A stretch of DNA of 64,000 nt from Bacteroidales bacterium (lineage in GTDB: Bacteria; Bacteroidota; Bacteroidia; Bacteroidales; UBA1402): the NCBI GenBank assembly GCA_017446025.1, contig JAFSRR010000104.1, positions 44,026 to 108,025 on the forward strand, written 5' to 3'. The first letter of the stretch is position 1; each line of letters starts with the position of its first letter. Made by a program: the position numbers and the translations under genes. The notes beneath the pieces are model-generated. The model did not search any database. It saw only the letters and a program-made list of their open reading frames with translations, and was not told the DNA's origin. Shown piece by piece: positions 3,747 to 55,450 of this stretch.

Positions 3747-3761
3747 GAGGAGAGTATAGCC

Positions 3762-3950: not shown

Positions 3951-3958
3951 TATAAGAG

Positions 3959-4114: not shown

Positions 4115-4146
4115 CTTGTTATTCAGAGTTTTGTCGATAAATATTC

Positions 4147-4179
4147 AAGGTTGTTTCTGATTCAGAGACAACCTTTTTT
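4147..4179 (+). terminator. Rho-independent terminator of the rpmB-rpmG-DUF4295 operon
   Basis: A 12-bp stem aaggttgtttct/agagacaacctt (one G-U pair) with a 5-nt loop is followed by a T6 run at 4174-4179. Confidence 0.8.
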
Positions 4180-4199
4180 CGCTTAATAAACAAGGTCAC

Positions 4200-13225: not shown

Positions 13226-13277
13226 GGGCACTGCCCCACGCTGTTGCTGACAATATTGCAGCAACGTCCGATAAAAA

Positions 13278-13308
13278 ATGTCAGTCCTTTGCGACTGGCA
13301 TTTTTTTT
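13278..13308 (+). terminator. Rho-independent terminator after clpC
   Basis: A 9-bp stem atgtcagtc/gactggcat (one G-U pair) is flanked by an A6 run upstream and a T8 run at 13301-13308. Confidence 0.75.
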
Positions 13309-13354
13309 GCTTGTGAGGGAGGCACATAAAACGACAATTTTAAAACATACAGAT

Positions 13355-15220
13355 ATGATCAAAGAAGGTAACATCGGGGTGACGACCGACAACATTTTCC
13401 CCGTCATCAAAAAGTTTTTGTACAGTGACCAGGAGATTTTCCTCCGTGAAATCGTGTCCAACGCCGTGGATGCCACGCAGAAGCTCAAGACGCTGTCCAA
13501 CCGCGGCGACTACAAGGGCGAGTTGGGCGACCTGGCCGTCCGTGTGAGCATCGACAAGAAAGCCAAGACGCTGACTGTCAGTGACCGTGGCATCGGTATG
13601 ACGGCCGAGGAAATCGACAAATACATCAACCAGATCGCTTTCTCCGGTGCTGAGGAGTTCCTGGAAAAATACAAGAACGACGCCAATGCCATCATCGGCC
13701 ATTTCGGACTGGGCTTCTACTCCTCCTTCATGGTCTCCAGCCGGGTCGATATCATCACCCGCTCCTGGCAGGAAGGCGCCCAGGCAGTGAAATGGAGCTG
13801 CGACGGCTCGCCGGCCTTCACCATCGAGGAGAGCGACAAGGCCGACCGCGGCACGGACATCGTGCTGCATATCGACGATGAATTCAAGGATTTCCTCAAG
13901 GAAGAGAAGATTTCATCACTGCTGGAGAAATACTGCAAGTTCCTGCCCGTGCCCATCGTCTTCGGCAAAAAGAAGGAATGGAAAGACGGCAAGCAGGTGA
14001 CCACCGATGAGGACAACCAGATCAACGACACCGAGCCGGCCTGGACGCGCAAACCCGCCGACCTGACCGAGGAAGACTACCTGAAGTTCTACAAGGCGCT
14101 TTATCCCTTCAGCGAGGATCCGCTTTTCCACATCCACCTGAATGTGGACTATCCTTTCAATCTGACGGGTATCCTCTACTTCCCGAAGATCAAGAACAGC
14201 ATCGAGATTCAGAAGAACAAGATCCAGCTCTATTGCAACCAGGTCTTTGTGACCGACTCGGTCGAAGGGATCGTGCCCAATTTCCTGACCCTTCTGCACG
14301 GTGTGATCGATTCGCCCGACATTCCGCTGAACGTGTCGCGTTCCTATCTGCAGAACGACGTCAATGTCAAGAAGATATCCAACCACATCACCAAGAAGGT
14401 GGGCGAAAGCCTGCTGAAGATCTTCAACAACGACCGCAAGCAGTTCGAAGAAAAATGGGACGATCTGAAGATATTCATTGGATATGGTGTATTGACCGAG
14501 GAAAAATTCTGGTCGCAGGCCGAGAAGTTTGCCCTCATCAAGAATACCGAAGGCAAATACTTCACCCTGGATGAGTACAAAACGCTGGTCGCTTCCGAGC
14601 AGACCGACAAGGACGGACAGCTGGTATGCCTGTATGCCGCCGACAAGGAAAAACAGTTCAGTTATATCGAGGCCGCTCGCAGCAAAGGCTATGACGTGCT
14701 GCTGATGGACGGCGAACTGGACGTGCCCTTCATGCAGCATCTGGAATCCAAGCTGGAAAAGACGCGTTTCGTGCGTGTGGACAGCGATGTCATCGACAAC
14801 CTGATCGCCAAGGCCGACAAGGCTGCTTTGACGCTGAGCGAGGAGGACCAGAACAAACTGAAAGATCTGTTCAAGAACAACCTGCCTACGCTCGACAAGG
14901 TCAATTTCGACGTCAAGTTGGAAAGCCTGGGCGAGGAAGCCGTGCCTGTCATGCTCACGCAGAACGAATTCATGCGCCGTATGAAAGACATGTCTGCCCT
15001 GCAGGCCGGCCTGAATTTCTACGGTGAAATGCCCGACAGCTACTCGGTGGTGGTCAATACCGACAACCGCTTGGTCAAAGATGCCCTGGCCGTTCCCGCA
15101 GAAGATGAAAACAATAAGCTGAAAATCAGTCAGATCGTGGATCTTGCCTTGCTTAGCAGCGGGATGTTGAAAGGCGAAGCCCTGGACAAATTCATCCACC
15201 GCAGCTACGATTTGATATGA
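13355..15220 (+). CDS. htpG: Molecular chaperone HtpG (Hsp90)
   Basis: 621 aa counted from ATG 13355. The sequence contains LYSDQEIFLREIVSNAVDATQKL, IGHFGLGFYSSFMV and GVIDSPDIPLNVSR. The track start at 13244 is a TTG lying inside the clpC terminator region and was rejected. Confidence 0.95.
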   Translation: MIKEGNIGVTTDNIFPVIKKFLYSDQEIFLREIVSNAVDATQKLKTLSNRGDYKGELGDLAVRVSIDKKAKTLTVSDRGIGMTAEEIDKYINQIAFSGAEEFLEKYKNDANAIIGHFGLGFYSSFMVSSRVDIITRSWQEGAQAVKWSCDGSPAFTIEESDKADRGTDIVLHIDDEFKDFLKEEKISSLLEKYCKFLPVPIVFGKKKEWKDGKQVTTDEDNQINDTEPAWTRKPADLTEEDYLKFYKALYPFSEDPLFHIHLNVDYPFNLTGILYFPKIKNSIEIQKNKIQLYCNQVFVTDSVEGIVPNFLTLLHGVIDSPDIPLNVSRSYLQNDVNVKKISNHITKKVGESLLKIFNNDRKQFEEKWDDLKIFIGYGVLTEEKFWSQAEKFALIKNTEGKYFTLDEYKTLVASEQTDKDGQLVCLYAADKEKQFSYIEAARSKGYDVLLMDGELDVPFMQHLESKLEKTRFVRVDSDVIDNLIAKADKAALTLSEEDQNKLKDLFKNNLPTLDKVNFDVKLESLGEEAVPVMLTQNEFMRRMKDMSALQAGLNFYGEMPDSYSVVVNTDNRLVKDALAVPAEDENNKLKISQIVDLALLSSGMLKGEALDKFIHRSYDLI

Positions 15221-16684: not shown

Positions 16685-18733
16685 GTGAAACTGCGTCTGA
16701 CAATCGTAATACTGCATGTCGCTTTCGTTTCGGCTTTGTTTGCCCAGCAAACCGGTCGCAGCGGAAGCGACACTGCTTTTATCTCTTCCCGCGCCATTGA
16801 AGAGGTGTCGGTCAATGCCCGTCGCACCACTTCCCTGGTCCGCCTGGGACAAGGCGGCGAATTGCGCATGGACATGGAGATGACCCAGCAAATGCCACGC
16901 ATCCTGGGCAACGCCGATCCGGTGCGTTTCATGCAGACACTGCCAGGCGTCCAGACCAACAATGAATTCGACGCCGGCCTGCATATCCAGGGCAGCGAGA
17001 ACGGTCACAACCATGTCTCCATCAACGGGGTGCCACTCTACAATGTCAACCACATGCTGGGGTTGTTTTCGGTATTCATCCCCACTCATTTTTCTGGGCT
17101 CAGCCTGATCAAGTCGCCCAATAACGCCACCCTGTCCAACCGTCTGGGCGGTTTCCTGGATATGGTCTCTCCGTTGGAGATTCCCGATTCGCTGCATCTG
17201 AGTGCCTCGGTGGGCCCGATGTCCTCGCAGGGCAGCCTGCAGACTGCTGTCGGAAAGAAATCCGCCTTGACCTTGTCCTTGCGCTCCACCTATCTGAATC
17301 TGCTCTACGGTCCTCTCCTGAAGGTTGACGGCCAACAACTCAAGTACCGGTTCTACGATGCCGATGCCACCTGGATGCTGATGACAAGCGACACAGAGCG
17401 TTTTTGGATAGACCTCTACCTGGGCCAGGATCATGGTGCTGCGATGGAAAACAAATACTTGTCGCAAGACCAGATGGATTGGGGCAATGCCATGGGCGCA
17501 TTGCATTGGCAGCGGGAAAACCGTTCCGGAGCCGTGGAGCACCGGACCTTGTTTGCGTCTTATTACTACAACCATGTGGACGTAGCCATTGAAAACGAAT
17601 TCGCCCAGTTGCCTTCCAGCATGTTCACTGTGGGATATCGCGACAATATCCGCTATGGCGATTTGCAAGCCGGCCTGGAGGCCAATTATCATTGTATCAA
17701 TCCGCAGCGTCCTTCCCTGAGCGGTTCCTTGGTGATATCGGCAATGGACGACAGCAGCCGCCTCATGACGGCCGTCGAATTGTCCGAATATATCGACTGG
17801 CAGCATCAGTGGGACACCTGGACTCTGCGTGCAGGCCTGCGTCTGAACCAATATGCCCTGCTGGGCGAACGGCCCTTTGTCCATCTGGATCCTTCGTTGT
17901 CGGTTGCCAAGACCATCAACGTCGAGCAACAGTTGGAGCTGGTCTATAGTCACCGTCACCAGTATCTTTTCCAGAGCGGTTTCTCCGCGGTAGGCTTCCC
18001 CACGGAATTCTGGTATCCATCCAGCCGGGCCCTGCTGCCACAGTCGGCCCACATGGTTTCACTGTCCTACTCTCTGCCGCTCATCCACCATGATTATTGG
18101 CTCAGTGCCGAAATCTATTACAAACATCTTTCTCATCAGGTGGAATACGATGACAACATCTTCAGCCTGCTCTCGTCCGACTATCGCCTGGAGGATGCCT
18201 TCCTGTCCGGACACGGCTACAACTGCGGTCTGAATGTCATGCTCAACAAGCGCACCGGCCACCTGAAAGCCTGGTTGAGCTATGCCTATACCCTGGCCCG
18301 CCGCCGTTTTGACGATGAAAGCAGGGATTACTGGTTTCCGGCCAGTCACGAACGCCCGCACGAGCTCAATCTGGTGATGAGCTACGATATCAACCCCCAC
18401 TGGCAGGTGGGCGGCACCATGGTCTATGCTTCCGGCACGCCGTTCACAGCGCCTGAATGCTTCTACTATATCAACGGCAACGTCATTACCTATTTCAGCC
18501 ACTACAATGCCAACCGTCTGGGAGCCTACAGTCGGACCGACCTGTCGCTGAGCTATCTCTTTTCCCGGCACGGCAAACGGCAAAGCGGCCTGAATTTTTC
18601 GGTATATAATGTTTTCAGCCGGAAGAACCGGATTTATTACCGGCTTAAGTTCAAAGACGGCGCTTTTGCCTATGTGCCGGTCCATCTCCTGGTGGAAACC
18701 ATTCCTTCGATCAACTATTTCATCAACTTCTAA
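16685..18733 (+). CDS. TonB-dependent outer-membrane receptor (plug plus barrel, no CarboxypepD_reg or SusC-type N-terminal extension)
   Basis: 682 aa with a GTG start. The signal peptide is KLRLTIVILHVAFVSALFAQQ. Plug motifs are DPVRFMQTLPGVQ and HIQGSENGHNHVSINGVPLYN. The C-terminus ends INYFINF with an aromatic beta-signal. Confidence 0.8.
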   Translation: MKLRLTIVILHVAFVSALFAQQTGRSGSDTAFISSRAIEEVSVNARRTTSLVRLGQGGELRMDMEMTQQMPRILGNADPVRFMQTLPGVQTNNEFDAGLHIQGSENGHNHVSINGVPLYNVNHMLGLFSVFIPTHFSGLSLIKSPNNATLSNRLGGFLDMVSPLEIPDSLHLSASVGPMSSQGSLQTAVGKKSALTLSLRSTYLNLLYGPLLKVDGQQLKYRFYDADATWMLMTSDTERFWIDLYLGQDHGAAMENKYLSQDQMDWGNAMGALHWQRENRSGAVEHRTLFASYYYNHVDVAIENEFAQLPSSMFTVGYRDNIRYGDLQAGLEANYHCINPQRPSLSGSLVISAMDDSSRLMTAVELSEYIDWQHQWDTWTLRAGLRLNQYALLGERPFVHLDPSLSVAKTINVEQQLELVYSHRHQYLFQSGFSAVGFPTEFWYPSSRALLPQSAHMVSLSYSLPLIHHDYWLSAEIYYKHLSHQVEYDDNIFSLLSSDYRLEDAFLSGHGYNCGLNVMLNKRTGHLKAWLSYAYTLARRRFDDESRDYWFPASHERPHELNLVMSYDINPHWQVGGTMVYASGTPFTAPECFYYINGNVITYFSHYNANRLGAYSRTDLSLSYLFSRHGKRQSGLNFSVYNVFSRKNRIYYRLKFKDGAFAYVPVHLLVETIPSINYFINF

Positions 18734-23184: not shown

Positions 23185-24024
23185 TTATTTTCGTTTCCGG
23201 ATAAAGTACATCAGTTTGTAATAGAGGTATTTCACGGTAGAGAACGGCCGGATTTCACGGCTCATGGCCAAGGTACGGCGGTTCATCTGCCAGGTGTCGC
23301 GCAGGTGATACAAACGGCGCAGGTAGTACTCCGCCCCCACCGATTGTGCCCCTACTTCATTGTCACCGTGCTGCCGGTAGAGAATGGTCGGTTGAGGCAC
23401 ATAGCCGAGCACACCGTCGGGATGGTCGGCCACCTTCAGGGCTATCCATTTGTCGTGCATCAGGGCTTTCTCGCCCAGAGGCAGGCTCAAGGCCCGGGCC
23501 TGGCTGTTGATCATCATCGTGCAGCCGGTGAAGGCATTGCAGACAGTCAGGTAGTTGAAGTTGTGTATCAACTTGCGATCGATGCCGTTGTATTTCCAGA
23601 AGGAAGGATGGATGACATGCAGTTCGTTGTCCACGACACAAAGATCGGTATTGACAGCCACCGGACTGCCGGGGTGTTTTTTTTCACAGACCCTCATCCT
23701 GGTCAGGGTCAGACTGATCTTTTCGGGCAACCAGACATCGTCGTGGTCGCAGAACATGTAGTACTGGTGGCCGGGATGCTGCTCGAGCAGCCACATGAAA
23801 CTGCCCATGGCCTGCCGGCCGGGTTGCGGATCGTGGTCGAGTTGCAGCCGGCCGTAACGCTGGCGGTATTTTTCCAGAATATCCAAGGTTTCGTCCGTCG
23901 AGCCGTCGTCGTGGACATAGACGGTGAAATCCTGACAGGTTTGGGTATAGAGCGAATCGAGCAAATCCGGCAGATAGTCGGCACTGTTGTATACACAGAG
24001 AAGTATGGCGATATCGGCATTCAT
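23185..24024 (-). CDS. Family 2 glycosyltransferase
   Basis: 279 aa from ATG 24024. The sequence starts MNADIAILLCVYNSADYLPDLLDSLYTQTCQDFTVYVHDDGSTDET, and later has CDHDDVW as the DxD region. The start overlaps the upstream stop as ATGA. The track's 88-codon N-terminal extension was rejected. Confidence 0.85.
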   Translation of the reverse strand: MNADIAILLCVYNSADYLPDLLDSLYTQTCQDFTVYVHDDGSTDETLDILEKYRQRYGRLQLDHDPQPGRQAMGSFMWLLEQHPGHQYYMFCDHDDVWLPEKISLTLTRMRVCEKKHPGSPVAVNTDLCVVDNELHVIHPSFWKYNGIDRKLIHNFNYLTVCNAFTGCTMMINSQARALSLPLGEKALMHDKWIALKVADHPDGVLGYVPQPTILYRQHGDNEVGAQSVGAEYYLRRLYHLRDTWQMNRRTLAMSREIRPFSTVKYLYYKLMYFIRKRK

Positions 24025-25922
24025 CAGTCTTCGAATTGAGGCAAGGCAAAGATAACATAGCCCGTCATGCTTGACAAGTCCCCATGGGCGTGAGGCAGGC
24101 GGAAAAACAGCGTGAAAGGCACGGAAGGGTCTATCTCGTCGAAACGGATTTCCAGCTTTTGCCAGGTATCCGGGCGGTTTAGGTCGTAGAGCGCCGTGTA
24201 TCTGTAGATGTCGGCGTATGAAGAGGTGCGCAGCATGACTGCCCGCCCGTTGAAATCGCGGCTCACGTAGCACCAGGCACTGAAACAATGCTTGGTTGTG
24301 TCGCGCAGGCAGAAGCCCGTGTTGAAGTCGACGGCGTTGATGTCAGGCATATCGTATCCTTTCGAAATATGGGTAATCTGATAGCCTTGGCAACCTTGCA
24401 ACTCGGCCGGTACCTGACCGGGCAGTTCACGAGCCAGTGTATAGGGTTTCACGGCATAGGTCTGCGGCCGGCGGGGATCGTGTCCCCTGGGTCCGCAGCA
24501 AAGAAAAAGCACTGTCAAGATCACAGACAAGGCGGCCACGCTGAACAGAACGGCCCAAATGCGACAGACGACCTTGTTTTCCATCCATCGGCTGTTTTCC
24601 TGACAACTGGCACTCTCCTGCCGGCCGTAATCGGTCATTGCCCAGACAAACTGCATCAGGGCGAAGGTGATGAACCCTCCGGCCTGCATGGTCACCGTCT
24701 CGGTCATCATCAGCAGCAGCCAGCACAGGGTGGCCGCCAACAGTAGCGGGCGCTGTTGACGGGTGCAAAGCAGCAGGGGCAGCAGCAGGATGGCTGTCCA
24801 GATCAAAACTGCAGACAAACCGCTTTCGAGGGCGGTGTGCAGGAAAGTGTTGTGGGCATGGGAGCGGTTGGCGATGATGTCATCGGCCAGATGCAAGTCT
24901 TTGTATTTGGCCATCAGAAGATCTTTGGCATCGCCCACGCCGGCCCCCGTGAGCCAGATATGGTCTTCCCTGAGCACGTCCACAGCCGCGGTCCAGATGC
25001 CGATGCGCCCTTCCTGCAACTGCTCGTTGTCCTGTTTTTTCAACTGATCGGGCTGGATGCGGTCGAAGGCAGGATGATAGTGCCAGACCAAACCGACGAC
25101 TATCAGGGCCAGGCCAAGCAGCGAGACAATGGCCAGCCGGTATTTGCGGGCATATTCACGACTGAGGTCGATCAGCATCCAGAAAAGCAATAAAATGGCC
25201 AAAATCAGATTCAGACGCCCTTGCGACAGGATGCACCATGCCATGAGCAGCAGGCTGTAGCTGCAGAACAGCAACCAGGAGCGTTTCTGCAGCCTGTCGG
25301 GCAGTCTTTTTTTGCGGAAGGCGGCATAGAAAGTGAGCCAGGCCATCAGCTGGATAATGCCGAAAAATGCCCGGTGCTTGTAGGCTAGCATGCTCACGAC
25401 ATAGGCCGAGGGAAACTGATGCAGGTAGTTGCGGAAACCGAAATCACTCAGATAGTGCAACACCGGCCAGGCCAGCATCAGCGTAAGATGGCAGGCGGCA
25501 CCGGCTACAAAGGCAGTGAGCAAGGGTTTGAGCCGGTAGTCGGGATGCAGCCGGAAGATGGCCATCAGCATCAAGACAATGAACGACACCCGACGTTCCA
25601 GCATGCGCTTGGAATAGTGCAGATTGTCGGTATAGAGCAAGGATATAAGCATTACTACATAGAACAGCACCATCAGATAGAGCACGATGTGCCGCTTGTC
25701 AAAGCGGGGATGCAGCAGGCGTCCGTTGACGAGGGCTTCCAAAAACCAGGTGAGCGCCCAGAAAAAGAAACAGTTGCAGACCCAGATATCCGGCATGCAT
25801 AGCGAAAAAGCCATGACCAGGGCCAGCAGCCAGTTCAGGCGGAAGAGCATCTCCCCCACTTGCTCGCGGAGCGTACCTTGCGGCCAGCTAAGCCATGACT
25901 TCAAATCGATCGGTCTTTCCAT
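24024..25922 (-). CDS. O-antigen ligase/polymerase-like (Wzy_C) membrane protein with an extra TM helix and a ~155-aa C-terminal soluble domain
   Basis: 632 aa with about 11 TM segments. The Wzy_C-like loop reads RSHAHNTFLHTALESGL. Residues 451-476 form an additional TM helix. Residues 478-632 (nt 24027-24491) are a Cys/Tyr/Phe-rich, beta-type domain. Confidence 0.7.
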   Translation of the reverse strand: MERPIDLKSWLSWPQGTLREQVGEMLFRLNWLLALVMAFSLCMPDIWVCNCFFFWALTWFLEALVNGRLLHPRFDKRHIVLYLMVLFYVVMLISLLYTDNLHYSKRMLERRVSFIVLMLMAIFRLHPDYRLKPLLTAFVAGAACHLTLMLAWPVLHYLSDFGFRNYLHQFPSAYVVSMLAYKHRAFFGIIQLMAWLTFYAAFRKKRLPDRLQKRSWLLFCSYSLLLMAWCILSQGRLNLILAILLLFWMLIDLSREYARKYRLAIVSLLGLALIVVGLVWHYHPAFDRIQPDQLKKQDNEQLQEGRIGIWTAAVDVLREDHIWLTGAGVGDAKDLLMAKYKDLHLADDIIANRSHAHNTFLHTALESGLSAVLIWTAILLLPLLLCTRQQRPLLLAATLCWLLLMMTETVTMQAGGFITFALMQFVWAMTDYGRQESASCQENSRWMENKVVCRIWAVLFSVAALSVILTVLFLCCGPRGHDPRRPQTYAVKPYTLARELPGQVPAELQGCQGYQITHISKGYDMPDINAVDFNTGFCLRDTTKHCFSAWCYVSRDFNGRAVMLRTSSYADIYRYTALYDLNRPDTWQKLEIRFDEIDPSVPFTLFFRLPHAHGDLSSMTGYVIFALPQFED

Positions 25923-27013
25923 CAGAATACCAGCATATAGGGTCTCAGATATCCTTGCATCAAGATGTTACCGAAAAGGGCCAGCGCCACCAGCACGGTG
26001 ATGAGCTCGGGCAGCCAGCGTGGTTTGATGAAGTATATCAGGTAGGGAATCAGAAATATCAGGATGATGTTGAGCATCTCCCAAAGACGGAAGGCAAAGA
26101 CGGCCAAAGGCATGAACAAATAGAACACGCCGATGGATATCATGTTGATTTTCAAGAACAGTATGCCGTAGGGTGATTTTTCGGGCAGTTCCTTGCGATA
26201 ATACAACAGAAAGCCTGACAACAGCAACTGGAACAACAACGTGGCATTCATCTCGTTGATTTTGAATCCTTTGAAGAACTGTTCGGCCTGGTAGATACGT
26301 ATTTTCTCGGAATAGACCCCCAGGTCGTATTTCGACAACAAGGTGATGGGGTCCACCCCGGCCTTCATCAGCAAGTATGGCACCACAATGACGGCAATAT
26401 ATGTCAATGGATTGATATTCTTTGTATTGAGGAAATAGAAGGGGAAAAAGATGATGGCCGAATAATGGAACATGGTGGCCAGCAGGATGACCAGGGCGAA
26501 TTTTCCGAAATCGCGCGAGATGATATAGCGGAAACTCATCATGGCGATACCGGCGGCCAGACCGGCGCGCACCTGTACGATCTCATGCAGCAGGAAATAG
26601 TCGCATACATAGATGAACAGGGAGAAGAAGGCAAACTCGGAATAGTCGTGGATGGCTTTCAGTTTCAAGCCCACAGCCGCAAGGGCAAAAAGAAAGATCA
26701 ATATCGCATACCCCGTATCGAAAGGGAAGATGAATTTGAGCAGCGAAGATATGAGCAGGAAGGAGGGCTCCACACTGTCGGCCAGGAAAAAGGCTTTGGG
26801 CTGCAGTACCAGCATATAGAGCGGCATGGCGTTCTTGTAGAAATCCAGGAACACATGGTCGTCGACACTGACATTGCGGCCTTTCAGACCGGCTATCAAA
26901 GCCAGGGCAACCCCCATGACAAGCAGCCAGATCCAACGGTTCACCTTGATCTGTTCACCAGTCAGGCACAAGACCAGGGCGGCCAGGACGACGACATAAT
27001 AAAAGGTAATCAT
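25922..27013 (-). CDS. EpsG-family polytopic membrane protein (putative Wzy-type glycan polymerase)
   Basis: It is highly hydrophobic with about 10 TM segments. Overall EpsG-like organisation. The stop overlaps the downstream start as ATGA. The track start at 27046 is TTG, and I prefer ATG at 27013 (MITFYYVVVL). Confidence 0.6.
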   Translation of the reverse strand: MITFYYVVVLAALVLCLTGEQIKVNRWIWLLVMGVALALIAGLKGRNVSVDDHVFLDFYKNAMPLYMLVLQPKAFFLADSVEPSFLLISSLLKFIFPFDTGYAILIFLFALAAVGLKLKAIHDYSEFAFFSLFIYVCDYFLLHEIVQVRAGLAAGIAMMSFRYIISRDFGKFALVILLATMFHYSAIIFFPFYFLNTKNINPLTYIAVIVVPYLLMKAGVDPITLLSKYDLGVYSEKIRIYQAEQFFKGFKINEMNATLLFQLLLSGFLLYYRKELPEKSPYGILFLKINMISIGVFYLFMPLAVFAFRLWEMLNIILIFLIPYLIYFIKPRWLPELITVLVALALFGNILMQGYLRPYMLVF

Positions 27014-27082
27014 GCGATACTGCGAGGGAGCTTTTCTGAAGGACAAAAGTAATGATTTTTATTTATTTTGCAGCCATTCGTT

Positions 27083-27134: not shown

Positions 27135-28559
27135 TTGGGAAAACGGAAAAACCTTCCATTGCTTGAAAATGTGACCATCACTGATGTCGCTGCCGAGGGA
27201 AACGCCTTGGCACGAGTGGATAATATGGTCATTTTCATGCCTTTTGGCGCTCCGGGAGATGTCGTGGATGTGCAGATAGTCAAGAAACGCAAGCAGCATG
27301 CCATCGGGCGGATTGTCCGCTTTGTGAGCCGCTCTGAGGAGCGTGTCGAGCCTTTCTGCAGCCATTTCGGCGTGTGCGGCGGCTGTCAGTGGCAGCACCT
27401 GCCCTACCCGGCCCAATTGCGTTTCAAACAGCAACAGGTGATGGACAATCTCACCCGCATCGGCCATGTCGAATTGCCGGAGCCGCGTCCCATCCTGGGT
27501 TCTGAAAAGCAGATTGAATACCGCAACAAGCTGGAATTCACCTTTTCTGACAAACGCTGGCGCACTTATGAAGAAGTGGCCTCCGGCCAGGAATTCTCTC
27601 CGCAGGACAATCTCGCCCTGGGATTCCATATCCCCGGCATGTTCGACAAAGTGCTTGACATCGACACCTGTCATCTGCAGGAGAACTTTTCCAACCTGTT
27701 GCGTCGCGATATCAAAGCCTGGTGTCAGGCACACGGGTATCCTTTCTTCAATCTGCGCAGCCAAACGGGCTTGATGCGCAATCTGATCGTGCGTACGGCC
27801 TCGACGGGCGAAAAGATGGTCATCGTGGTCTTCCACGACCCTGACCAGCCGCGCATCCAGGCGCTCATGCAGCATATTGCCGAGACTTTTCCCGAGATCA
27901 CTTCCCTGCTCTATATCGTCAACGACAAGTGCAACGACACCGTCTTCGACCGCGAGGTCTTTGTCTTCAGTGGACGCGACTACATTTTTGAGAAAATGGA
28001 AGACCTGAAGTTCAAGATTGGTCCCAAGTCGTTCTACCAGACCAATTCGGCGCAGGCCTACCGTTTATATGGCGTAGTCAGGGAGTTTGCCGCCCTGACG
28101 GGCTCTGAATTAGTCTATGACCTTTATACCGGTACGGGCACCATCGCCAATTTCCTGGCCCTGCAAGCCCGGCAGGTGATCGGGGTGGAATACGTGCCCG
28201 AGGCTATCGAGGACGCCAAGGTCAATGCCGCCCTGAACGGTCTGGACAACACCCTGTTCTTTGCCGGCGATGTCAAGGACATTGTCAATGAGGATTTTCT
28301 GGCCAAATATGGCACCTCCGACGTGCTCATCACCGACCCGCCCCGGGCTGGCATGCACGAAGATGTGGTTCGTACCATCCTGTCGGCACGCCCCCGTCGG
28401 GTGGTCTATGTGAGCTGCAATCCTGCCACCCAGGCCCGCGACTTGAGCCTGCTCGATGTGGCATACCAGGTGACGGCCATCCAGCCGGTGGATATGTTTC
28501 CGCATACGCAACATGTGGAGAATGTGGTATGTCTCGACCTCAGAAAAGAATGTTCGTAA
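27135..28559 (+). CDS. rlmD: 23S rRNA (uracil-5)-methyltransferase RlmD/RumA
   Basis: 474 aa. It has a TRAM domain (ITDVAAEGNALARV), the Fe-S motif CSHFGVCGGCQWQH and a SAM-methyltransferase C-terminal half ending YVSCNPATQARD. The start is TTG, because the next ATG would delete the TRAM domain. Confidence 0.85.
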   Translation: MGKRKNLPLLENVTITDVAAEGNALARVDNMVIFMPFGAPGDVVDVQIVKKRKQHAIGRIVRFVSRSEERVEPFCSHFGVCGGCQWQHLPYPAQLRFKQQQVMDNLTRIGHVELPEPRPILGSEKQIEYRNKLEFTFSDKRWRTYEEVASGQEFSPQDNLALGFHIPGMFDKVLDIDTCHLQENFSNLLRRDIKAWCQAHGYPFFNLRSQTGLMRNLIVRTASTGEKMVIVVFHDPDQPRIQALMQHIAETFPEITSLLYIVNDKCNDTVFDREVFVFSGRDYIFEKMEDLKFKIGPKSFYQTNSAQAYRLYGVVREFAALTGSELVYDLYTGTGTIANFLALQARQVIGVEYVPEAIEDAKVNAALNGLDNTLFFAGDVKDIVNEDFLAKYGTSDVLITDPPRAGMHEDVVRTILSARPRRVVYVSCNPATQARDLSLLDVAYQVTAIQPVDMFPHTQHVENVVCLDLRKECS

Positions 28560-28592: not shown

Positions 28593-31500
28593 ATGAAAAC
28601 CAAAGCTTTGTTTATGTCTGTGCTGATGATCGGCTTGTTCCTGACCCCGGCATGGGCATTGATCACGGATCCGGAGGATTATGTGATCTATGATTCGGGC
28701 CAGCTCTGCGAGAGAGGCAGTTTCACCAAGCCTGATTTCTTCAGCGCTACGGGCTGGGAATTCGGAGAGGCCGCCTCTTCCCTCTCGGGAAACTCCTCCC
28801 TGGCTGCTTTCCTGGGCGCTTCATCAACGACCGACCCGCTCAACGCCATCCTGATCGGCAAGACCGACACGCTGGTGCTGACGCTCCCTGCCTGCGACTC
28901 CATCTATATCGAGTATTGGGGCACAGGTATGCGCGGTCTGAAAATCACCAACGACCACAACAACAGCTATGCCTGGCATTCGGTCAATGGTATGCGTGAC
29001 AGAGGCCGGGTCGGAGCCCGCTTCGATGCCAAGGATTCCATCCGCATTTATCTGACCGGCACCAAGTTGGAGGTGACCACCCCCTTGAACAACAACGAAA
29101 AGGTCAACATCAACCGCATCAAAATCTACGCCGGTATCGAGGACAGTGATGTGCCTGAATTCGACGGCACCATCGCCGGCTGGACCTTCCAGTATCATCC
29201 CAAAGCCAGCGGCACGGTCGATCTGACCTCGCTTGTCACTTCCGAAGAAGGCTTTGAATCGGCCAAATACGACATCTATGCTTCCGATCTGGGCGTGGTC
29301 CGTGGCAAACTGACGGCCTCCAAGGGCTTCTCGCTGGGTTACGACGGTACGGAACATGCCGCCCGTATCCAGGGCATGCAGGCCAACCAGTCGGTGGATT
29401 TCACCAAGGACGAGCAACACAAGGATTATTTCCAGATTGAAGTGCCGACTACCGGATTCCAGGACATGGAACTCCAGTTCAACTTCAGCCTGCTCTCTTC
29501 GGCTTCCTCGGCCGTTGTAGTGACCCGGGCTTCCGGTCAGACCGACTGGACGCTTGCCGGCAAGTTCGAACAGAACGGCAGCAAGACGTCGGTCAATGTG
29601 CCGCTCACTGGCATGGACAATGCAGCCACTACCCAGATTCGTATCATGCCCGACAACGGCACCTACGGCAACGGCGGCGAACTGATGATTTCCGCTTTGA
29701 AGATCAAAGGCTACGATGACTATTATAAGGTGAACGAAGGTGCTTTGAAGATCGCCTACATCAACAATGCCACCGACCGTATCCACATCCTGGACCGCGC
29801 AACCACCTCCGATTCGCTGGATACCAAGTTGTTGCCTGCCCTGTTGAAGAACGCCGACCTGGATGTCGACGTGCTGCACCAGCAACTTTGGCAGGACATC
29901 ACCGCCGAAAACATTCTTGAAAGACTGGCCGGTTACGACCTGGTCATCCTGAGTGATTTTGTTCCGGCCAACTCCTCCATTGCCCAGGCATGCCTGGCAC
30001 TCGTCGGTCACAAACCGCTGTTGAACTTGAGTGCCAATGTCTATAACAGCACTGCCTGGAACTGGAGTCCCGTTCAAACCAGTCAGGCCGTCCAGCTGGC
30101 TTCCAACAGCCACTTCACGTTCCATCCTGTTTTCAGTGATGTAAAACTGACCGAGCTGCTTACCGGCCAGCTGTTTGCCGACGCTCCTGAAGCCTTGTCC
30201 ACGACAGCAGGTTTCAGCGCCGCCCAGTACAACGGACAGGAAGGTTATATGATCGCAACGCCTGCCGGTGCCAGCGGTGTGGTCGCCATCCACGAGCTGA
30301 ACAGCAATCCGGCCGCCAAATACATGCTGGTGGCCCTGCCTGTGGCTGGCCAGCCCTATTTGAGCGACATTGCCCTGAAGATTGTCAACAACGCCATCCG
30401 CTATGTCAGCTCGGCCAATGTCTTTGTTGAGCCGCTGTTTACGATGGTGGCCGGCGGAGCCCTGGTTGAGAACATCTCTGAACTGCAGGGAGCCTTGGTG
30501 TATGACTATGCAGCCTTGAATCTCAAGCAGATCGTCATTGAAATGAAACCCAGTACCGATGCCAACGGCATTTATCTCCTGCCTTCCGAAGGCCTGACCA
30601 TCGATGCTTCGCTCAACAATGTGGTATTCCGCGGCAGCCAGGGCAAGGATGTCGTACTGTCCGGTCAGTTCAAGGGCAAGACGGCTATGAAGTTCAACGA
30701 CCTGATGTTTGACAACCTGATTCTGGCCCAGGACAAGTCGGGCAAGTTCATCTCATTGGCAGCCAACGACACCATTACCGGCAGCTTGACCATCCAGAAC
30801 TGCCGTGCCGGACGGGATGCCGATGTGGCCGGCACCCTGGTTGAAGTCAACGGCGGTGCACAACTCAGTCAGTTGACTGTCAACAACAATGCATTCGGAC
30901 AGAAGGCTGCCACCTTGCTGTGCAAAGTCACAGACGGCACAGTGGCCATAGATAATGTCACCGTCAAGGAGAACTGCTTCTACGGATCTTCCCTGCGTGA
31001 AATGATAGCCTTCGGCCAGACCGCATTCAGCAATGACCAGCTGGCCCTGGCTGTTGTCAACAACACTTTCTATGCCTGCGACGCTGCCAACAGCAACCTG
31101 ATCAGCTTTGAAAAGGCTCCTCAGATTCCTGTGACAACTCAGGTAAACAACAACTTGATGTTCCAGAGCAAGAACTCAGCCCTCAGTGCCGCTCCTTATC
31201 ACGGATTGCATTTCTATCAGCCTGCCGAAGGCTTGAAAGTCCAGGTATTGAACAACCTGTTGGCTGAGCCGGCAGAGAATGTCACGGCCTTCGGTGTATG
31301 GCCCGACACGCTCACCATTGAAAGCAAGACGCTTGATGCTGCCCGTTTCGGCGCCATCTTCCAGGGAGATGACATGGAGATATCCAAAGCTTCTGCTCTC
31401 TACACGGCTGGTGTCAACCACACGTATGTCGGTTCGGTCGATTGCTACGTGGATCGTGCCCAGGCCGGTGTCCTGACTGTCCACAACGTACCCGAACTGA

Positions 31501-32834
31501 AGGTGGCCCTGCAGATTTCCGTACCAGGTGACACCATCGAACTGGCCGCTTGCGACGAAGACAACGGCGTCTATCTGCTGGGTGCCTCCGGGTTGGTTTA
31601 TCCGCAGCATCACGGTTCGTTGCTGATCCGCAATGCCAAGGACGAAGAGCCCGTGCTGTTCGGCCGCATTTCTTCGAGCAACGGCGCCAAGCTGAGCAGC
31701 CTGGTCTTCGAAGGTTTGACCTGGCGCGACAATACCACCTATACAGGTTACAACCTGGAGACCTACTCTCCTTTCTATGTCAACGTCCGCGACTCGATTA
31801 TGGAGACCTGGACCGTGCGTCAGTGCAACTTCTACGATTTGGACAACCAGGAAATCTTCCGTACCAACACAGGTTGCAACTTTGCTGTCATCAAGGAACT
31901 CCGTTTCGAGAACTGCTACTTCGACAACATGGGTGGTTCCCGTCCTTGCGACGGCAAATCCATGGGTGCCCACTTCATCCAGTTTGTCAACAATTCGAGC
32001 ATCAAGTACGAGCTCGACAGCTTTGTCTTTGTACACAACATCGTGTCCAACTTCCACGGCAGCCAGCTGTTCAACATTGCCCGTCAGGCCTCGACTTCGC
32101 AGGATTCGACCATCAGCATCACCATCTGCCACAACCTGTTCTACAAGCTGGGCGGCCATGCTGAGAAGAACCGCAACTTCTTGGAGTTCACTTCCAACGC
32201 CAATGGCTTCGATATCAATATCGACATCAACGACAACATCTTCTATCGTCGCTGGAGCGACCAGTACTACCCCGTTTCCAACCTGGCCTTGTTTATGCCG
32301 GCCAAGGGACAGCAGGTTTCGATCAATTTGCTGAACAACTATTTCGACGGTGAGTATTACGATGGTGACGGAGAAGATCCCAATCCCGTCGCTCAGAAGA
32401 ACAAGAGCCAGAACCTCTATGTTTCCTCTGGTGACGAAAAGATGGTGAACCGCGGCAAGCCGCTCTTCTGGTTCGATCTGGAAATCGATGAACTCTTCGA
32501 AGATGAAAACACCTTCTTCATCGGCAACGAATCGCCTTTGTTCACAGCCGGCACCAACGGCGGCTATGTCGGTCCGAAAATCTGCTACAACATTGCTCCG
32601 GAGCCTGTTGACGCCATCCGCCCGAATCACAGCCGTGAGGGTCTGCAGGTTGTTGTCCGTGAGTCTCAGGTACTGCTCTTCACCAGCGAAACAGCTGTCG
32701 TGAACATCTACAATGTTTTTGGACAAACGGTTCGCAGTCTGCGTCTGGAAGCTGGCGAGCACAGCGTTGAAGGTCTGGCTCCCGGTCTCTATCTGATTAC
32801 CGACGGCAAGAAATCGGCCAAGGTGCTCTTCTAA
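28593..32834 (+). CDS. 1413-aa secreted multidomain protein with two right-handed beta-helix modules and a T9SS type-A C-terminal sorting domain; function unknown
   Basis: The signal peptide is MKTKALFMSVLMIGLFLTPAWA. Residues 23-385 are beta-rich. Residues 386-607 form an alpha/beta module (KIAYINN, YDLVILSDF and HKPLLNL). Two blocks of NNxF-type beta-helix rungs follow, and the second opens with LKVALQISVPGDTIEL at nt 31524. The C-terminus reads VVNIYNVFGQTVRSLRLEAGEHSVEGLAPGLYLITDGKKSAKVLF. Confidence 0.8.
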   Translation: MKTKALFMSVLMIGLFLTPAWALITDPEDYVIYDSGQLCERGSFTKPDFFSATGWEFGEAASSLSGNSSLAAFLGASSTTDPLNAILIGKTDTLVLTLPACDSIYIEYWGTGMRGLKITNDHNNSYAWHSVNGMRDRGRVGARFDAKDSIRIYLTGTKLEVTTPLNNNEKVNINRIKIYAGIEDSDVPEFDGTIAGWTFQYHPKASGTVDLTSLVTSEEGFESAKYDIYASDLGVVRGKLTASKGFSLGYDGTEHAARIQGMQANQSVDFTKDEQHKDYFQIEVPTTGFQDMELQFNFSLLSSASSAVVVTRASGQTDWTLAGKFEQNGSKTSVNVPLTGMDNAATTQIRIMPDNGTYGNGGELMISALKIKGYDDYYKVNEGALKIAYINNATDRIHILDRATTSDSLDTKLLPALLKNADLDVDVLHQQLWQDITAENILERLAGYDLVILSDFVPANSSIAQACLALVGHKPLLNLSANVYNSTAWNWSPVQTSQAVQLASNSHFTFHPVFSDVKLTELLTGQLFADAPEALSTTAGFSAAQYNGQEGYMIATPAGASGVVAIHELNSNPAAKYMLVALPVAGQPYLSDIALKIVNNAIRYVSSANVFVEPLFTMVAGGALVENISELQGALVYDYAALNLKQIVIEMKPSTDANGIYLLPSEGLTIDASLNNVVFRGSQGKDVVLSGQFKGKTAMKFNDLMFDNLILAQDKSGKFISLAANDTITGSLTIQNCRAGRDADVAGTLVEVNGGAQLSQLTVNNNAFGQKAATLLCKVTDGTVAIDNVTVKENCFYGSSLREMIAFGQTAFSNDQLALAVVNNTFYACDAANSNLISFEKAPQIPVTTQVNNNLMFQSKNSALSAAPYHGLHFYQPAEGLKVQVLNNLLAEPAENVTAFGVWPDTLTIESKTLDAARFGAIFQGDDMEISKASALYTAGVNHTYVGSVDCYVDRAQAGVLTVHNVPELKVALQISVPGDTIELAACDEDNGVYLLGASGLVYPQHHGSLLIRNAKDEEPVLFGRISSSNGAKLSSLVFEGLTWRDNTTYTGYNLETYSPFYVNVRDSIMETWTVRQCNFYDLDNQEIFRTNTGCNFAVIKELRFENCYFDNMGGSRPCDGKSMGAHFIQFVNNSSIKYELDSFVFVHNIVSNFHGSQLFNIARQASTSQDSTISITICHNLFYKLGGHAEKNRNFLEFTSNANGFDINIDINDNIFYRRWSDQYYPVSNLALFMPAKGQQVSINLLNNYFDGEYYDGDGEDPNPVAQKNKSQNLYVSSGDEKMVNRGKPLFWFDLEIDELFEDENTFFIGNESPLFTAGTNGGYVGPKICYNIAPEPVDAIRPNHSREGLQVVVRESQVLLFTSETAVVNIYNVFGQTVRSLRLEAGEHSVEGLAPGLYLITDGKKSAKVLF

Positions 32835-32857
32835 GCCTAAAGACACTCTCTTATACA

Positions 32858-32900
32858 AACGGTCCCCGGAAGTTTCGGACTTCCGGGGACCGTTGTTTTT
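32858..32900 (+). terminator. Strong rho-independent terminator
   Basis: A perfect 16-bp stem aacggtccccggaagt/acttccggggaccgtt with a 5-nt loop is followed by gTTTTT. Confidence 0.85.
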
Positions 32901-32941
32901 GCTTCGGATGTGGGAAAGGTACACTGCCCTGTCAGGGTCGC

Positions 32942-34033
32942 TCAAAGCAGCAATCCCAAACCGCCGAGCAGCAAGGCTAGCGACATTTTGATGCCCTTGA
33001 CCACGACAAAGGCTTTCTTGTCTTCGGCAAACAAAGGCAGGCTGCTGTGGCCGTCCTGTACCAGGGCATTGGCCAGCAAAATGCAGAAAGGAATATGACC
33101 GCCCAGGAACAGGCCGACAAAGATCAGATGCGGGCCGGATTCGGGAATCAGTCCGACGGCTACAGCCAGCAGAAGCAGCACATAGGGGTTGCGGTTTATC
33201 CAATTGAGGGCATCCATGCGGTATTCCAGCATGTGGACCAATGCCAGGGCCGCCAGGGTCCACAGGAAGATCTTTAGGAAATGCTTGCGGATGACATGCT
33301 CCCAAAGGTGATGCTCGAGAAAATGCTCGCTGACAGTGAGCACGGTCATCAGCACGGCCAGGGCCAGGACCAGGAAGACATAGTTGAACCAACGTTCTTC
33401 CAAAGGCAGATGCAATCCTGTGGAAGGGCCTGCTGCCATTTCATGCGGCATATCATGGCCATGCTCAAATCCGCCCATGGCCAGCAGAATGATAAAACCG
33501 ACCAGACCGGCAGCCAACAGGGCACGCGCAAAACTGGGATGCAGCAAATGCTTTTTCCAACGGCCGGGCAAATCTTTCAAGCGAATGTGTCCAGGCTGTT
33601 CGTGTTGGTGTAGGACCAGGTGTTCGGGATGAACGGCTGCCGGTGATATGCGCGGAAACAGTTTCCGGGCGGCAAAACCCGCCGGCAGCGCCAGGGCAAA
33701 AAGGATAGCCAGGATCATCAGGGTCTTTTCAGGCATTTGAACCAGCATGACAAAAGATTCGTCGCCGATGCTGGTGATCATGGCGGCCAGCAGCGCCCCT
33801 GAATGCAATATGCCGTGGGAATACATCGACACGACGGCAAAGCCGCCGAAACAGCCGGGAATCAGCCCCAGCAAAGCTGCCACTATGGTCTGCAGACGGG
33901 GCGAACGCGACAGGCCGCGATGCCAATTGCCCTGGGTGGAGATGTTCAATATCTCTATAAACAACATGATGACCAGCACAAAAGTGGTGATCATCAAGGT
34001 GTCTTTGAAAACGTCCAAAAATAGATGGGTCAT
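32942..34033 (-). CDS. Polytopic His-rich membrane protein, putative 10-TM metal transporter (ArsP_2 / putative manganese transporter family)
   Basis: 363 aa from ATG 34033. The two halves share motifs: GLIPGCFGGFAVVSMY against GLIPESGPHLIFVGLF. Three His-rich stretches are present: HPEHLVLHQHEQPGH, FEHGHDMPHE and EHFLEHHLWEH. The ATGA overlap with the rlmB stop was checked. The family name is from memory. Confidence 0.55.
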   Translation of the reverse strand: MTHLFLDVFKDTLMITTFVLVIMLFIEILNISTQGNWHRGLSRSPRLQTIVAALLGLIPGCFGGFAVVSMYSHGILHSGALLAAMITSIGDESFVMLVQMPEKTLMILAILFALALPAGFAARKLFPRISPAAVHPEHLVLHQHEQPGHIRLKDLPGRWKKHLLHPSFARALLAAGLVGFIILLAMGGFEHGHDMPHEMAAGPSTGLHLPLEERWFNYVFLVLALAVLMTVLTVSEHFLEHHLWEHVIRKHFLKIFLWTLAALALVHMLEYRMDALNWINRNPYVLLLLAVAVGLIPESGPHLIFVGLFLGGHIPFCILLANALVQDGHSSLPLFAEDKKAFVVVKGIKMSLALLLGGLGLLL

Positions 34034-34797
34034 TGTCTTTGTCTGACTGCTTCGTAAATCATGATACCGGCCGCTACCGAGACATTGAGCGAAGCGATGT
34101 TGCCCAGGATGGGAATCTGGACCAGTTCGTCGCAAATGCGCAGGTGTTCGGGAGCGATGCCCGTATCCTCTGCCCCCATGATGATGGCCGTAGGACCGCT
34201 GTAATCGGCCCCTGTATACATTTGGGATGCTTTCTCCGTGGCAGCGATCAGATGAAAACCGGAGTCTTTGAGATAGCGCAGTGCATCGCGCAGGCTGTTC
34301 TCGCGGCAGACGGGCAAGGTGTGCAAGGCTCCGGCCGAGGTCTTCACGGCATCGGCATTGACCGTGACGCTGTTGTTCATCGGCAGGACGATGGCATCCA
34401 CACCGGCACAGGCGCAGGTACGGGCAATGGCTCCGAAATTGCGCACATCGGTTACACTGTCCAAGACAACGACCAGAGGCTGCTTGCCGGCCTCATACCA
34501 TAGCGGCACCATTTGTTCGAGCCGCTGATAGGTGACGGGCGAGACAAAGGCGATCACTCCCTGGTGGTTCTTGGTGGTGATATGGTTGAGCTTTTCCTGG
34601 GGGACACGCTGGACGGGAATATTCGTGCCCTTCAACTGCTCGAAGAGTTCCCGGGCCAGATTGTTTTCCAAGTTCTTGCGTATCCAGATCTTATCGACAT
34701 CCTTGCCAGCGGCGACAGCCTCCATGACGGCACGTATGCCGAAGATCATCTCGTTGCCGCTGCCGGGTTGTTTTCTGTTGTAATACATGGGGTTCAA
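34030..34797 (-). CDS. rlmB: 23S rRNA (guanosine-2'-O)-methyltransferase RlmB (SpoU/TrmH family)
   Basis: 255 aa. It has an N-terminal SpoU substrate-binding domain (IFGIRAVMEAV and NHQGVIAFVS) and the SpoU knot motifs (LDSVTDVRNFGAIARTC, GAEDTGI and SLNVSVAAGIMIYE). Confidence 0.85.
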   Translation of the reverse strand: MNPMYYNRKQPGSGNEMIFGIRAVMEAVAAGKDVDKIWIRKNLENNLARELFEQLKGTNIPVQRVPQEKLNHITTKNHQGVIAFVSPVTYQRLEQMVPLWYEAGKQPLVVVLDSVTDVRNFGAIARTCACAGVDAIVLPMNNSVTVNADAVKTSAGALHTLPVCRENSLRDALRYLKDSGFHLIAATEKASQMYTGADYSGPTAIIMGAEDTGIAPEHLRICDELVQIPILGNIASLNVSVAAGIMIYEAVRQRQ

Positions 34798-50481: not shown

Positions 50482-50484
50482 AAG

Positions 50485-55341: not shown

Positions 55342-55394
55342 CTTTGCAAAGGATTTGTCGGAGCAAAGAAAACGATTATTTCTGAGAAACACAC

Positions 55395-55430
55395 AAAAAA
55401 AAAGACGGTTCTCTTCGTGAGAATCGTCTC
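55395..55430 (-). terminator. Rho-independent terminator after cysK
   Basis: The minus strand has an 11-bp stem agacgattctc/gagaaccgtct (one A-C mismatch) with loop acga, followed by a T9 run (plus-strand A-run 55395-55403). Confidence 0.65.
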
Positions 55431-55450
55431 TTTTGCCACAGAATTGGATG

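Follow-up and report, generated by a model that had tools for sequence, protein, structure and literature searches.

We analysed a gene on contig JAFSRR010000104.1 that encodes a large modular protein of an uncultured, rumen-type Bacteroidales bacterium. The open reading frame (ORF) starts with ATG and occupies positions 28593-32834 (+) of a 64-kb window, by which we mean the whole stretch of 64,000 nucleotides that was analysed. With 1413 aa it is the longest ORF of the window (the runner-up has 849 aa), as a preliminary description read from the letters had stated. Full-length homologs (n = 23, 29-99% identity) and 24 loci added by a genome scan indicated that the gene is real and not a chance ORF. 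Two antisense ORFs within the gene, at 28824-30293 (-) with 489 aa and at 31176-33392 (-) with 738 aa, were rejected as genes and taken as coding-frame shadows (55% GC); the frame conserved in homologs is that of the plus strand.

The ORF immediately upstream (27135-28559, 474 aa) is predicted to be rlmD-like from the TRAM and tRNA U5 methyltransferase domains of a syntenic relative. Its stop lies 33 nt before the start of the 1413-aa gene, and a sigma-70 scan of this gap found no promoter-like site, which agrees with the earlier statement that the gene begins 33 nt after rlmD with no readable promoter. The 16-bp terminator described earlier was recovered as 16 Watson-Crick pairs plus one G-T pair, in a hairpin beginning 23 nt past the stop codon. 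The GC content, which had been called lower than that of core genes, turned out to be 0.52-0.56 per 1-kb window, the same as in the rest of the window; horizontal acquisition inferred from low GC was rejected because the GC of the gene is not low. On the whole protein, no curated model reached its cutoff (the best were DUF4957, Por_Secre_tail at an E-value of 0.03 and TIGR04183 at E 0.03). A full-length match to any curated family or characterised protein was not found either.

Modules and export signals of the 1413-aa protein

AlphaFold2 was run on two overlapping pieces of the protein, each with an alignment of 19-20 homologs. In the model of residues 24-625 (mean pLDDT 84.8), two all-beta domains (~24-184 and ~188-375) with a linker of low confidence between them (185-187) are followed by a beta/alpha module at 385-608, which closes with a long helix. 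In the model of residues 609-1413 (mean pLDDT 85.1, pTM 0.76), two beta-solenoids (~617-950 and ~960-1340), each with a short capping helix in front of it (628-635 and 966-974), are followed by a seven-strand sandwich at 1352-1412. The predicted module order shown in this way is a signal peptide, two jelly rolls resembling carbohydrate-binding modules (CBMs), the alpha/beta module, two paralogous beta-helices, and a sorting domain of the type IX secretion system (T9SS) (Table 1). AlphaFold2 therefore agrees with the preliminary description, which had proposed beta-sandwiches, an alpha/beta module and two beta-helices in this order, and the boundaries differ by no more than about 10 residues (385-608 for the alpha/beta module against 386-607 as claimed). 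When hidden Markov models (HMMs) of six modules were applied to the best 142 of the 545 proteins matched by the alpha/beta-module profile, the complete six-module architecture was found only in the family of the 1413-aa protein.

Table 1 Predicted features of the 1413-aa gene and its downstream side, in window coordinates
Feature	Position	Strand	Basis and remarks
Signal peptide	28593..28658	+	Residues 1-22, MKTKALFMSVLMIGLFLTPAWA; read from the translation
Jelly-roll 1 (JR1), CBM-like	28662..29156	+	Residues ~24-188; all-beta in the model
Jelly-roll 2 (JR2)	29157..29729	+	Residues ~189-379; all-beta in the model; best conserved N-terminal motif
Alpha/beta module (AB)	29730..30428	+	Residues 380-612, folded core 385-608
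Beta-helix 1 (BH1)	30429..31454	+	Residues 613-954; right-handed; model
Beta-helix 2 (BH2)	31455..32618	+	Residues 955-1342; right-handed; capping helix and PGDTIEL at 978-984
Candidate BH2 substrate groove	31848..32258	+	Q1086, R1090, H1127, Q1130, H1155-G-S1157-Q1158, N1161, Y1184, R1194, R1220, S1222
T9SS sorting domain	32619..32831	+	Residues ~1343-1413, sandwich 1352-1412; Foldseek
Intrinsic terminator	32858..32904	+	Hairpin 32858-32894, 17-pair stem, 3-nt loop, T-rich tail; convergent genes on either side
ArsP_2 permease ORF	32942-34135	-	Pfam scan; convergent neighbour of the 1413-aa gene

The N-terminus, MKTKALFMSVLMIGLFLTPAWA followed by LITDPEDY, reads as a Sec signal peptide. A22, I24, D26, P27 and D29 are invariant in 18 aligned homologs, the mature start being I24-T-D26-P27-x-D29. 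The stretch I-T-D-P-x-D-Y encoded at 28662-28682 (residues 24-30) is invariant or almost so in all 18 homologs, which is unusual for a mature N-terminus.

At the opposite end, Foldseek matched the C-terminal sandwich to the C-terminal domains (CTDs) of RemA (8gl6_D, TMt 0.61) and RgpB (7pq4, TMt 0.54) and to 5hfs in the PDB, each with probability 1.0. The sequence matches of this domain were weak (PF18962 E 0.03, TIGR04183 E 0.03, 8glj_D E 0.046-0.13, HBP35 E 0.053), and the protein missed the cutoffs of the T9SS domain models, with 14.3 against 23 bits for TIGR04183 and 15 against 27 bits for PF18962. Among 18 relatives, the C-terminus gave a weak PF18962 match in six and a better match, to DUF6383, in five; a CTD profile was present in all family members and in many other carriers of the alpha/beta module. 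Type A T9SS cargo proteins such as RgpB, RemA and HBP35 share with the 1413-aa protein the N-terminal Sec signal and a seven-strand sandwich of ~70 residues at the extreme C-terminus, and the difference is that the CTD sequence of the latter scores under the curated cutoffs. In such cargo the CTD is cleaved after export and the protein becomes attached to the outside of the cell. The earlier view of a secreted T9SS-type cargo was thus supported by the fold of the sandwich and weakly by its sequence. No T9SS component was found among the 10 large ORFs of the window that were scanned.

For the N-terminal sandwiches, Foldseek returned tandem jelly-roll or CBM-like structures from the PDB, including Vip3A, Cry toxins, reelin, an accessory domain of glycoside hydrolase (GH) family 101, the xyloglucan binder SGBP-B, an alpha-1,6-glucosyltransferase and BcsB, and weak Reelin_subrepeat-B matches were found in three homologs. 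No part of the N-terminal half is better conserved than residues 201-240 of JR2, with the motif Y201, S206-G-T-V209, Y229-A-S-D-L-G234 and R237. BcsB of cellulose synthase, in which carbohydrate-binding jelly rolls alternate with flavodoxin-like domains and which guides the polysaccharide chain, was matched across the N-terminal 600 residues over 550-710 columns (E 1e-9 to 8e-8). However, the TM-scores of 0.12-0.13, the root-mean-square deviation (rmsd) of ~26 Å and the identity of 8-10% set the two apart, and the order and number of domains are unlike.

Beta-helix duplication and the candidate groove of helix 2

The two helices are related to each other. The BH1 and BH2 HMMs hit each other, and in the 1413-aa protein BLASTP aligned BH1 with BH2 from end to end (22% identity over 387 columns, E 5e-10), with FHGSQL of helix 2 opposite FYGSSL of helix 1. 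The PGDTIEL motif, which had been said to open the second helix block, lies at the start of helix 2 in the model. To compare the two helices, conservation was counted in non-redundant copies taken from all collected relatives, 32 of BH2 and 21 of BH1. Ten polar residues (Q1086, R1090, H1127, Q1130, H1155, S1157, Q1158, N1161, R1194 and R1220) were kept in 31-32 of the 32 BH2 copies and in only 1-8 of the 21 BH1 copies. Y1184 was present in all 32 BH2 copies and in 14 of the 21 BH1 copies, and S1222, which stands outside this count, was invariant in 18 aligned homologs. Residues kept in both helices were those of an Asn ladder (N1149, N1181, N1215 and N1249), the core residues F1183 and F1217, and Y994 and G1024. 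BH2 shows the highest conservation of the C-terminal half, and BH1 is less conserved than BH2 overall. Since the ten residues are near-invariant in BH2 and mostly lost in BH1, these results support that BH2 is the working module and BH1 a degenerate duplicate.

In the secondary structure assigned to the model by DSSP, the Asn-ladder turn is followed by a loop and a strand, and it is here, on five consecutive rungs, that the ten polar residues are placed. In the pectate-lyase fold, turn T2 holds the Asn ladder, and T3 and PB1 together make up the substrate cleft.

Comparison of residues 609-1413 with the PDB by Foldseek showed that all nine matches with E <0.001 were chains of two-domain alginate lyases of polysaccharide lyase (PL) family 6 (8bwk, 7dmk, 5gkq and 7o77), at E 1.5e-8 to 3e-6 and probability 1.0 over ~840 columns with 11-13% identity. 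The global TM-scores of these matches are low (0.19-0.32) and the rmsd is ~26-27 Å, so that the relative placement of the two modelled helices differs from that in PL6. Weaker matches were other polysaccharide-active beta-helices, with GH55, GH87 and GH110 at E 0.03-0.25. A lead to PL40 ulvan lyases was dropped, as no entry labelled ulvan lyase or PL40 was among the 50 Foldseek matches listed. Two-domain PL6 lyases (AlyGC 5GKQ, BcAlyPL6 7DMK, the metagenomic 8BWK and Patl3640 7O77) have in common with the 1413-aa protein two consecutive right-handed helices of ~350 residues in one chain and a conserved site in just one of the two. In AlyGC, however, the catalytic helix comes first, whereas in the 1413-aa protein the conserved helix is the second, and the latter is longer by ~600 residues at its N-terminus and ends in a T9SS domain.

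By sequence, DUF4957 (PF16318) and DUF5123 (PF17161) were the only curated families that either helix touched. DUF4957 scored 28.0-28.6 bits against a cutoff of 30.8 on BH1 of the 1413-aa protein (residues ~691-798), and among 18 relatives it matched 12 (best E 1.7e-9) and DUF5123 matched six. BH1 of one relative passes the DUF4957 cutoff at 36.4 bits, and the best DUF5123 score was 30.7 against 35.1. With the helices scanned separately, DUF4957 hit the first half of both and DUF5123 the second half of helix 2 of a relative, and all of these matches except one stayed under the cutoff. The likeness of the helices to PL6 and DUF4957 proteins, as first described, was thus upheld by the top Foldseek matches and by sub-threshold DUF4957 and DUF5123 matches in both helices. 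The full-length profile weakly matched, in the BH1 region, the C-terminal helix of BcAlyPL6, which is non-catalytic (E 7e-4); its matches to leucine-rich repeats (ribonuclease inhibitor, NLRP), confined to helix 1, were set aside as artefacts of solenoid periodicity. The only sequences recovered by word-indexed searching with the BH2 profile were two fragments from the protein's own family, and tblastn of BH2 against plasmids gave nothing useful.

As far as is known, DUF4957 and DUF5123 proteins have a single helix, are ~500 residues long and are encoded in SusC/D loci. They share with the 1413-aa protein a place on the surface of Bacteroidota and a link to acidic plant polysaccharides, and it differs from them in having a double helix with extra modules, in being T9SS-sorted and in lying outside any polysaccharide utilization locus (PUL). 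In B. thetaiotaomicron, these domains are found in pectin PULs, for example in BT1026 and BT4112, and the literature describes BT4112, a DUF5123 protein of the homogalacturonan locus, as binding glycans at the cell surface (PMC10434189, PMC8002723). Searching the literature for the two families yielded a single expression table.

The alpha/beta module and the ThuA fold

The alpha/beta module, alone or as a profile, had no match in Pfam or among PDB sequences. A profile search of 1.84 billion representative sequences found 545 proteins at E ≤0.001 (239 at E ≤1e-10), these 545 carriers being representatives of clusters at 50% identity. On this sequence evidence, the module is a widespread mobile domain family of at least 545 such clusters that has no Pfam or NCBIfam entry. 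Among the representatives P0024-P0165, it stands alone with a sorting domain in a protein of 270 aa (P0074), occurs in tandems of 2-4 copies (P0028, P0058, P0072), and lies inside proteins of 2000-3840 aa. The source names of the carriers are only 'hypothetical' or 'T9SS sorting domain'. Among 62 scanned carriers, no Pfam model covered the module itself, and its partners were domains of extracellular type (CHB_HEX_C_1, Fn3_assoc, Por_Secre_tail, DUF5018, Flg_new, He_PIG and cadherin-like domains). One carrier of 1000 aa, P0062, is a PL11 rhamnogalacturonan lyase (RGI_lyase and RGL11_C, E 1e-196) with the module at residues 71-258, followed by CHB_HEX_C_1. The cluster of P0040 (750 aa) has the order JR1-JR2-AB-CTD without beta-helices and includes MDD2618014.1 from the Bacteroidales metagenome-assembled genome (MAG) PHT87; the label PHT87 is common to this MAG and to P0023, a partial relative of the full type. 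Given the P0040 type, the N-terminal 600 residues seem to be an independent unit.

The preliminary description had likened this module to the fold of ThuA and class I amidotransferases. For comparison, a ThuA sequence was used only as a tblastn probe, which led to 12 annotated plasmid ThuA genes, and this set was enlarged by 120 further PF06283 proteins. Aligned by hhalign with the 12 ThuA sequences, a 174-sequence alignment of the module scored 29.6 (P-value 0.0011, probability 21%, 100 columns); with all 132 sequences, it scored 27.9 (P 0.002, probability 14%, 175 columns). The paired segments (module/ThuA) were YDLVVLS/YDAVIFL, KPLLN/GGFVGIH, W-x-W/DWPWY, HPIF-G/HP-T-G and, in the last helix, NA-x-x-YL/GGI-x-WA. 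Among the controls, 100 column shuffles gave a mean of 11.4 and a maximum of 17.5, the other five modules scored ≤19, and reversed ThuA scored 22.1. The resemblance of the module to ThuA is therefore above background and collinear, and weak.

Membership in the ThuA family was rejected. Pfam ThuA (PF06283) matched none of 13 module sequences (E ≤10) and none of 62 further carriers (E ≤0.001). Residues that are invariant or near-invariant in the 12 real ThuA domains (H87, H118-P119, E147, Y149, G182-R183 and G190-H191 in L013 numbering) mostly have no counterpart in the module, and hhalign puts them opposite non-conserved positions; the HP motif of the module pairs with the second, less conserved HP of ThuA. 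Class I amidotransferases have their nucleophile Cys after the fourth strand, in a triad with His and Glu. At the corresponding position, after 'KPLLN-L', the members of the family vary between K, S, N and T; this positional equivalence is suggested by the strand order of the model. In the module, H511 and E568 are invariant and have no Cys partner. Of the original claim, then, the beta/alpha order and a collinear alignment above controls stood, whereas the alignment is statistically weak (P 0.001-0.002), Pfam gave no match and the invariant residues of ThuA are not kept. The module is probably a separate, uncurated family sharing the ThuA (GATase1-like) fold, with strands and helices in the same order; unlike ThuA, the module of the 1413-aa protein is extracellular and the module is often in tandem. 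Nothing relevant was found in the literature on ThuA together with type IX secretion.

Distribution, genomic context and function

The family was found only in MAGs of herbivore-gut Bacteroidales, from yak rumen, roe deer omasum and rectum, cattle colon and similar sources. Several paralogs occur per genome: the yak-rumen MAG RGIG10352 has six loci (L020, L025, L031, L034, L036 and L037) and other MAGs two or three, and a tandem pair lies on a single contig (L022, 5986-10410 and 10688-14380). Comparison of the genes downstream of rlmD, as proposed earlier, revealed that the synteny is kept only in relatives of at least 74% identity, and distant members lie in unrelated contexts; a functional link to rlmD was rejected because the synteny is lineage-specific. 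In the subclade of L032 (also L029, L033 and L041), a BD-FAE esterase, a CBM9 protein and a GH43 with GH43_C2 adjoin the gene, the neighbouring ORFs of L032 lying at 3375-5024, 5053-5781 and 11948-13564. Another distant member adjoins a GH78 rhamnosidase, a GH29 fucosidase and pentose and galactose catabolic genes. A 973-aa ORF without a Pfam match recurs downstream in the L032-type subclade.

In the window itself, the genes at 24024-27046 (-), just upstream of rlmD, encode Wzy_C-type and EpsG-type membrane proteins and a family 2 glycosyltransferase (GT2), as assigned by synteny with the relative L005, which suggests an O-antigen or exopolysaccharide (EPS) cluster. A 771-aa ORF at 53194-55509 (-) matches the Pel9A-like beta-helix PF22842 (E 2e-10, residues 243-541) and is thus another beta-helix protein of the window, unrelated to the first and possibly a pectate lyase of PL9 type; it had no match to the CTD, alpha/beta or helix profiles of the 1413-aa family. 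Two further ORFs, at 16685-18733 (+) with 682 aa and at 49780-51612 (-) with 610 aa, had no Pfam match at E ≤1e-5; the latter overlaps plus-strand ORFs and may be a shadow.

We consider it likely that the 1413-aa protein is a surface protein that binds or processes polysaccharide, and the polysaccharide engaged is most likely an acidic one of the plant cell wall. The best explanation of the whole, which we put forward tentatively and at slightly less than an even chance, is a multi-modular protein exported through Sec and the T9SS, attached to the surface and acting on glycans, probably as a lyase. On export, as in type A cargo, the CTD would be removed and the protein anchored on the outer surface, where the jelly rolls, and possibly the alpha/beta module too, would hold plant cell-wall polysaccharide. 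A chain would lie along the groove of helix 2 over about five rungs, Arg, Gln and Asn would neutralise the uronate carboxylates, and His or Tyr would abstract the C5 proton. The outcome would be a metal-independent beta-elimination, unlike the PL6 chemistry of Lys and Arg plus calcium. Helix 1, as a degenerate duplicate, may extend the platform or have a role in assembly, comparable to the second helix of AlyGC-type PL6 lyases, which is non-catalytic. Metal-independent lyases use a repertoire of His or Tyr with Arg, Gln and Asn.

That helix 2 is catalytic is a narrower claim, which we hold as a real possibility with the balance leaning against it. In favour of cleavage are the near-invariance of the ten polar residues down to ~30% identity and the fact that the best structural neighbours are all enzymes. 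Several points weigh on the other side. In PL6, catalysis depends on a Lys base, an Arg acid and a calcium site of Asn and two Glu (chondroitinase B, AlyGC). Within BH2, no Lys or Glu reaches 90% conservation among the 32 copies, and the only basic residues that do are the Arg residues R1090, R1194 and R1220. The PL6 catalytic residues that the preliminary description had proposed to look for in either helix block are therefore missing as far as the Lys/Glu set is concerned, judged from residue conservation alone in the 32 BH2 and 21 BH1 copies; without the base and the calcium site, the known PL6 mechanism cannot apply. Pfam Chondroitinas_B (PF14592, PL6), Pectate_lyase and GH28 had no match at E ≤1 in 18 members, and the BH2 profile found no solved structure and no PL6 chain among the PDB sequences. 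We know of no characterised homolog of the 1413-aa family, and its nearest sequence families include a non-catalytic binding protein. In the window, the neighbours are housekeeping genes and the O-antigen/EPS-like cluster upstream, a context that is not conserved across the family. Finally, the ten residues would form a stripe of ~24 Å on the canonical substrate face, a placement that comes from secondary structure and periodicity only. A still more specific proposal, that helix 2 is a new lyase or C5-epimerase-like family with a metal-independent mechanism of His/Tyr plus Arg/Gln/Asn and a plant-wall polyuronide of the rumen as substrate, and that the alpha/beta module is at the same time a new ThuA-fold family for carbohydrate binding or assembly, present in hundreds of extracellular proteins, is rather improbable as a conjunction.

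Some of the same observations would also fit a non-catalytic surface glycan-binding protein or adhesin, in which helix 2 is an inactive, lyase-like lectin as in BT4112, and extra avidity comes from the jelly rolls and the alpha/beta module, so that the protein tethers the cell to plant fibre or captures polysaccharide for other enzymes. The closest families are DUF4957 and DUF5123, one member of which is described as surface glycan-binding (PMC8002723), and BH2 lacks conserved acidic pairs as well as the Lys and Glu of known beta-helix lyases. Tandems of 2-4 alpha/beta modules in giant proteins with cadherin-like, He_PIG, Flg_new and FG-GAP domains are typical of adhesins, and the helix-free short paralog P0040 and the several paralogs per genome point in the same direction. 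However, conservation of the ten residues down to ~30% identity, together with their loss in the duplicate, is stronger than most lectin sites need. The His/Tyr/Arg/Gln/Asn make-up fits metal-independent lyase chemistry, and the nine Foldseek matches at E <0.001 are all enzymes. A binding protein of this kind is, in our view, somewhat unlikely.

For a beta-helix glycoside hydrolase (GH28-, GH55-, GH87- or GH110-like), acting through D1111 and D1171 or at the helix-helix interface as in GH55, the weaker Foldseek matches to GH55, GH87 and GH110 structures (E 0.03-0.25) can be adduced, as can D1171, kept in 31 of the 32 BH2 copies, and D1111, nearly invariant in 13 aligned sequences. GH28 enzymes have the motifs NTD, GDD, GHG and RIK with three catalytic Asp, which the D-N, D-N, H-G and R on successive rungs of BH2 loosely recall. 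Yet D1171 is also present in 13 of the 21 BH1 copies and looks structural, D1084 varies (D/E/Q/N), and BH2 has no invariant carboxylate pair or Asp triad of its own. With no GH Pfam match, GH28 included, at E ≤1 in 18 members, and with PL6 Foldseek matches at least five orders of magnitude better than the GH ones, a hydrolase is very unlikely. Equally improbable is that the protein has nothing to do with glycans and is part of a surface coat or a protein-binding component (for example a cell-cell adhesin, a decoy for phages or predators, or a T9SS cargo with a structural role) whose stripe binds a protein or lipid partner: the housekeeping context with the O-antigen/EPS-like cluster (Wzy_C, EpsG, GT2) upstream would suit it, and paralog expansion with variable N-terminal insertions resembles variable surface proteins, but carbohydrate is indicated by each module for which a relative could be detected (CBM-like jelly rolls, polysaccharide-active helices, the alpha/beta module on a PL11 lyase) and by the CAZyme neighbours of several paralogs.

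The T9SS cargo, the CBM-like sandwiches and the pectate-lyase-fold helix of the favoured glycan-acting surface protein are already known kinds. What is new is the uncharacterised family, the duplication with one-sided decay that marks a candidate site unlike that of PL6, and a large, uncurated mobile domain. Two of these go beyond the preliminary description, namely that the alpha/beta module is common and mobile (545 clusters) and that the predicted helices are duplicates with conservation confined to the second; the lack of the PL6 Lys/Glu set and the lineage-specific nature of the rlmD synteny had not been foreseen there either. Major fibre degraders of the rumen and hindgut include Bacteroidales that rely on T9SS-secreted enzymes in place of classical Sus-type loci, and many large surface proteins of these bacteria lack annotation. 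The degenerate helix 1 serves as a built-in negative control that points to the ten residues of helix 2, which makes this an experimentally tractable case. If helix 2 is catalytic, it would represent a new lyase chemistry on a beta-helix scaffold, and if both proposed families are real, one protein would give two new CAZy-type families. Defining the alpha/beta domain would improve the annotation of many extracellular proteins, including giant adhesin-like ones and a PL11 lyase.

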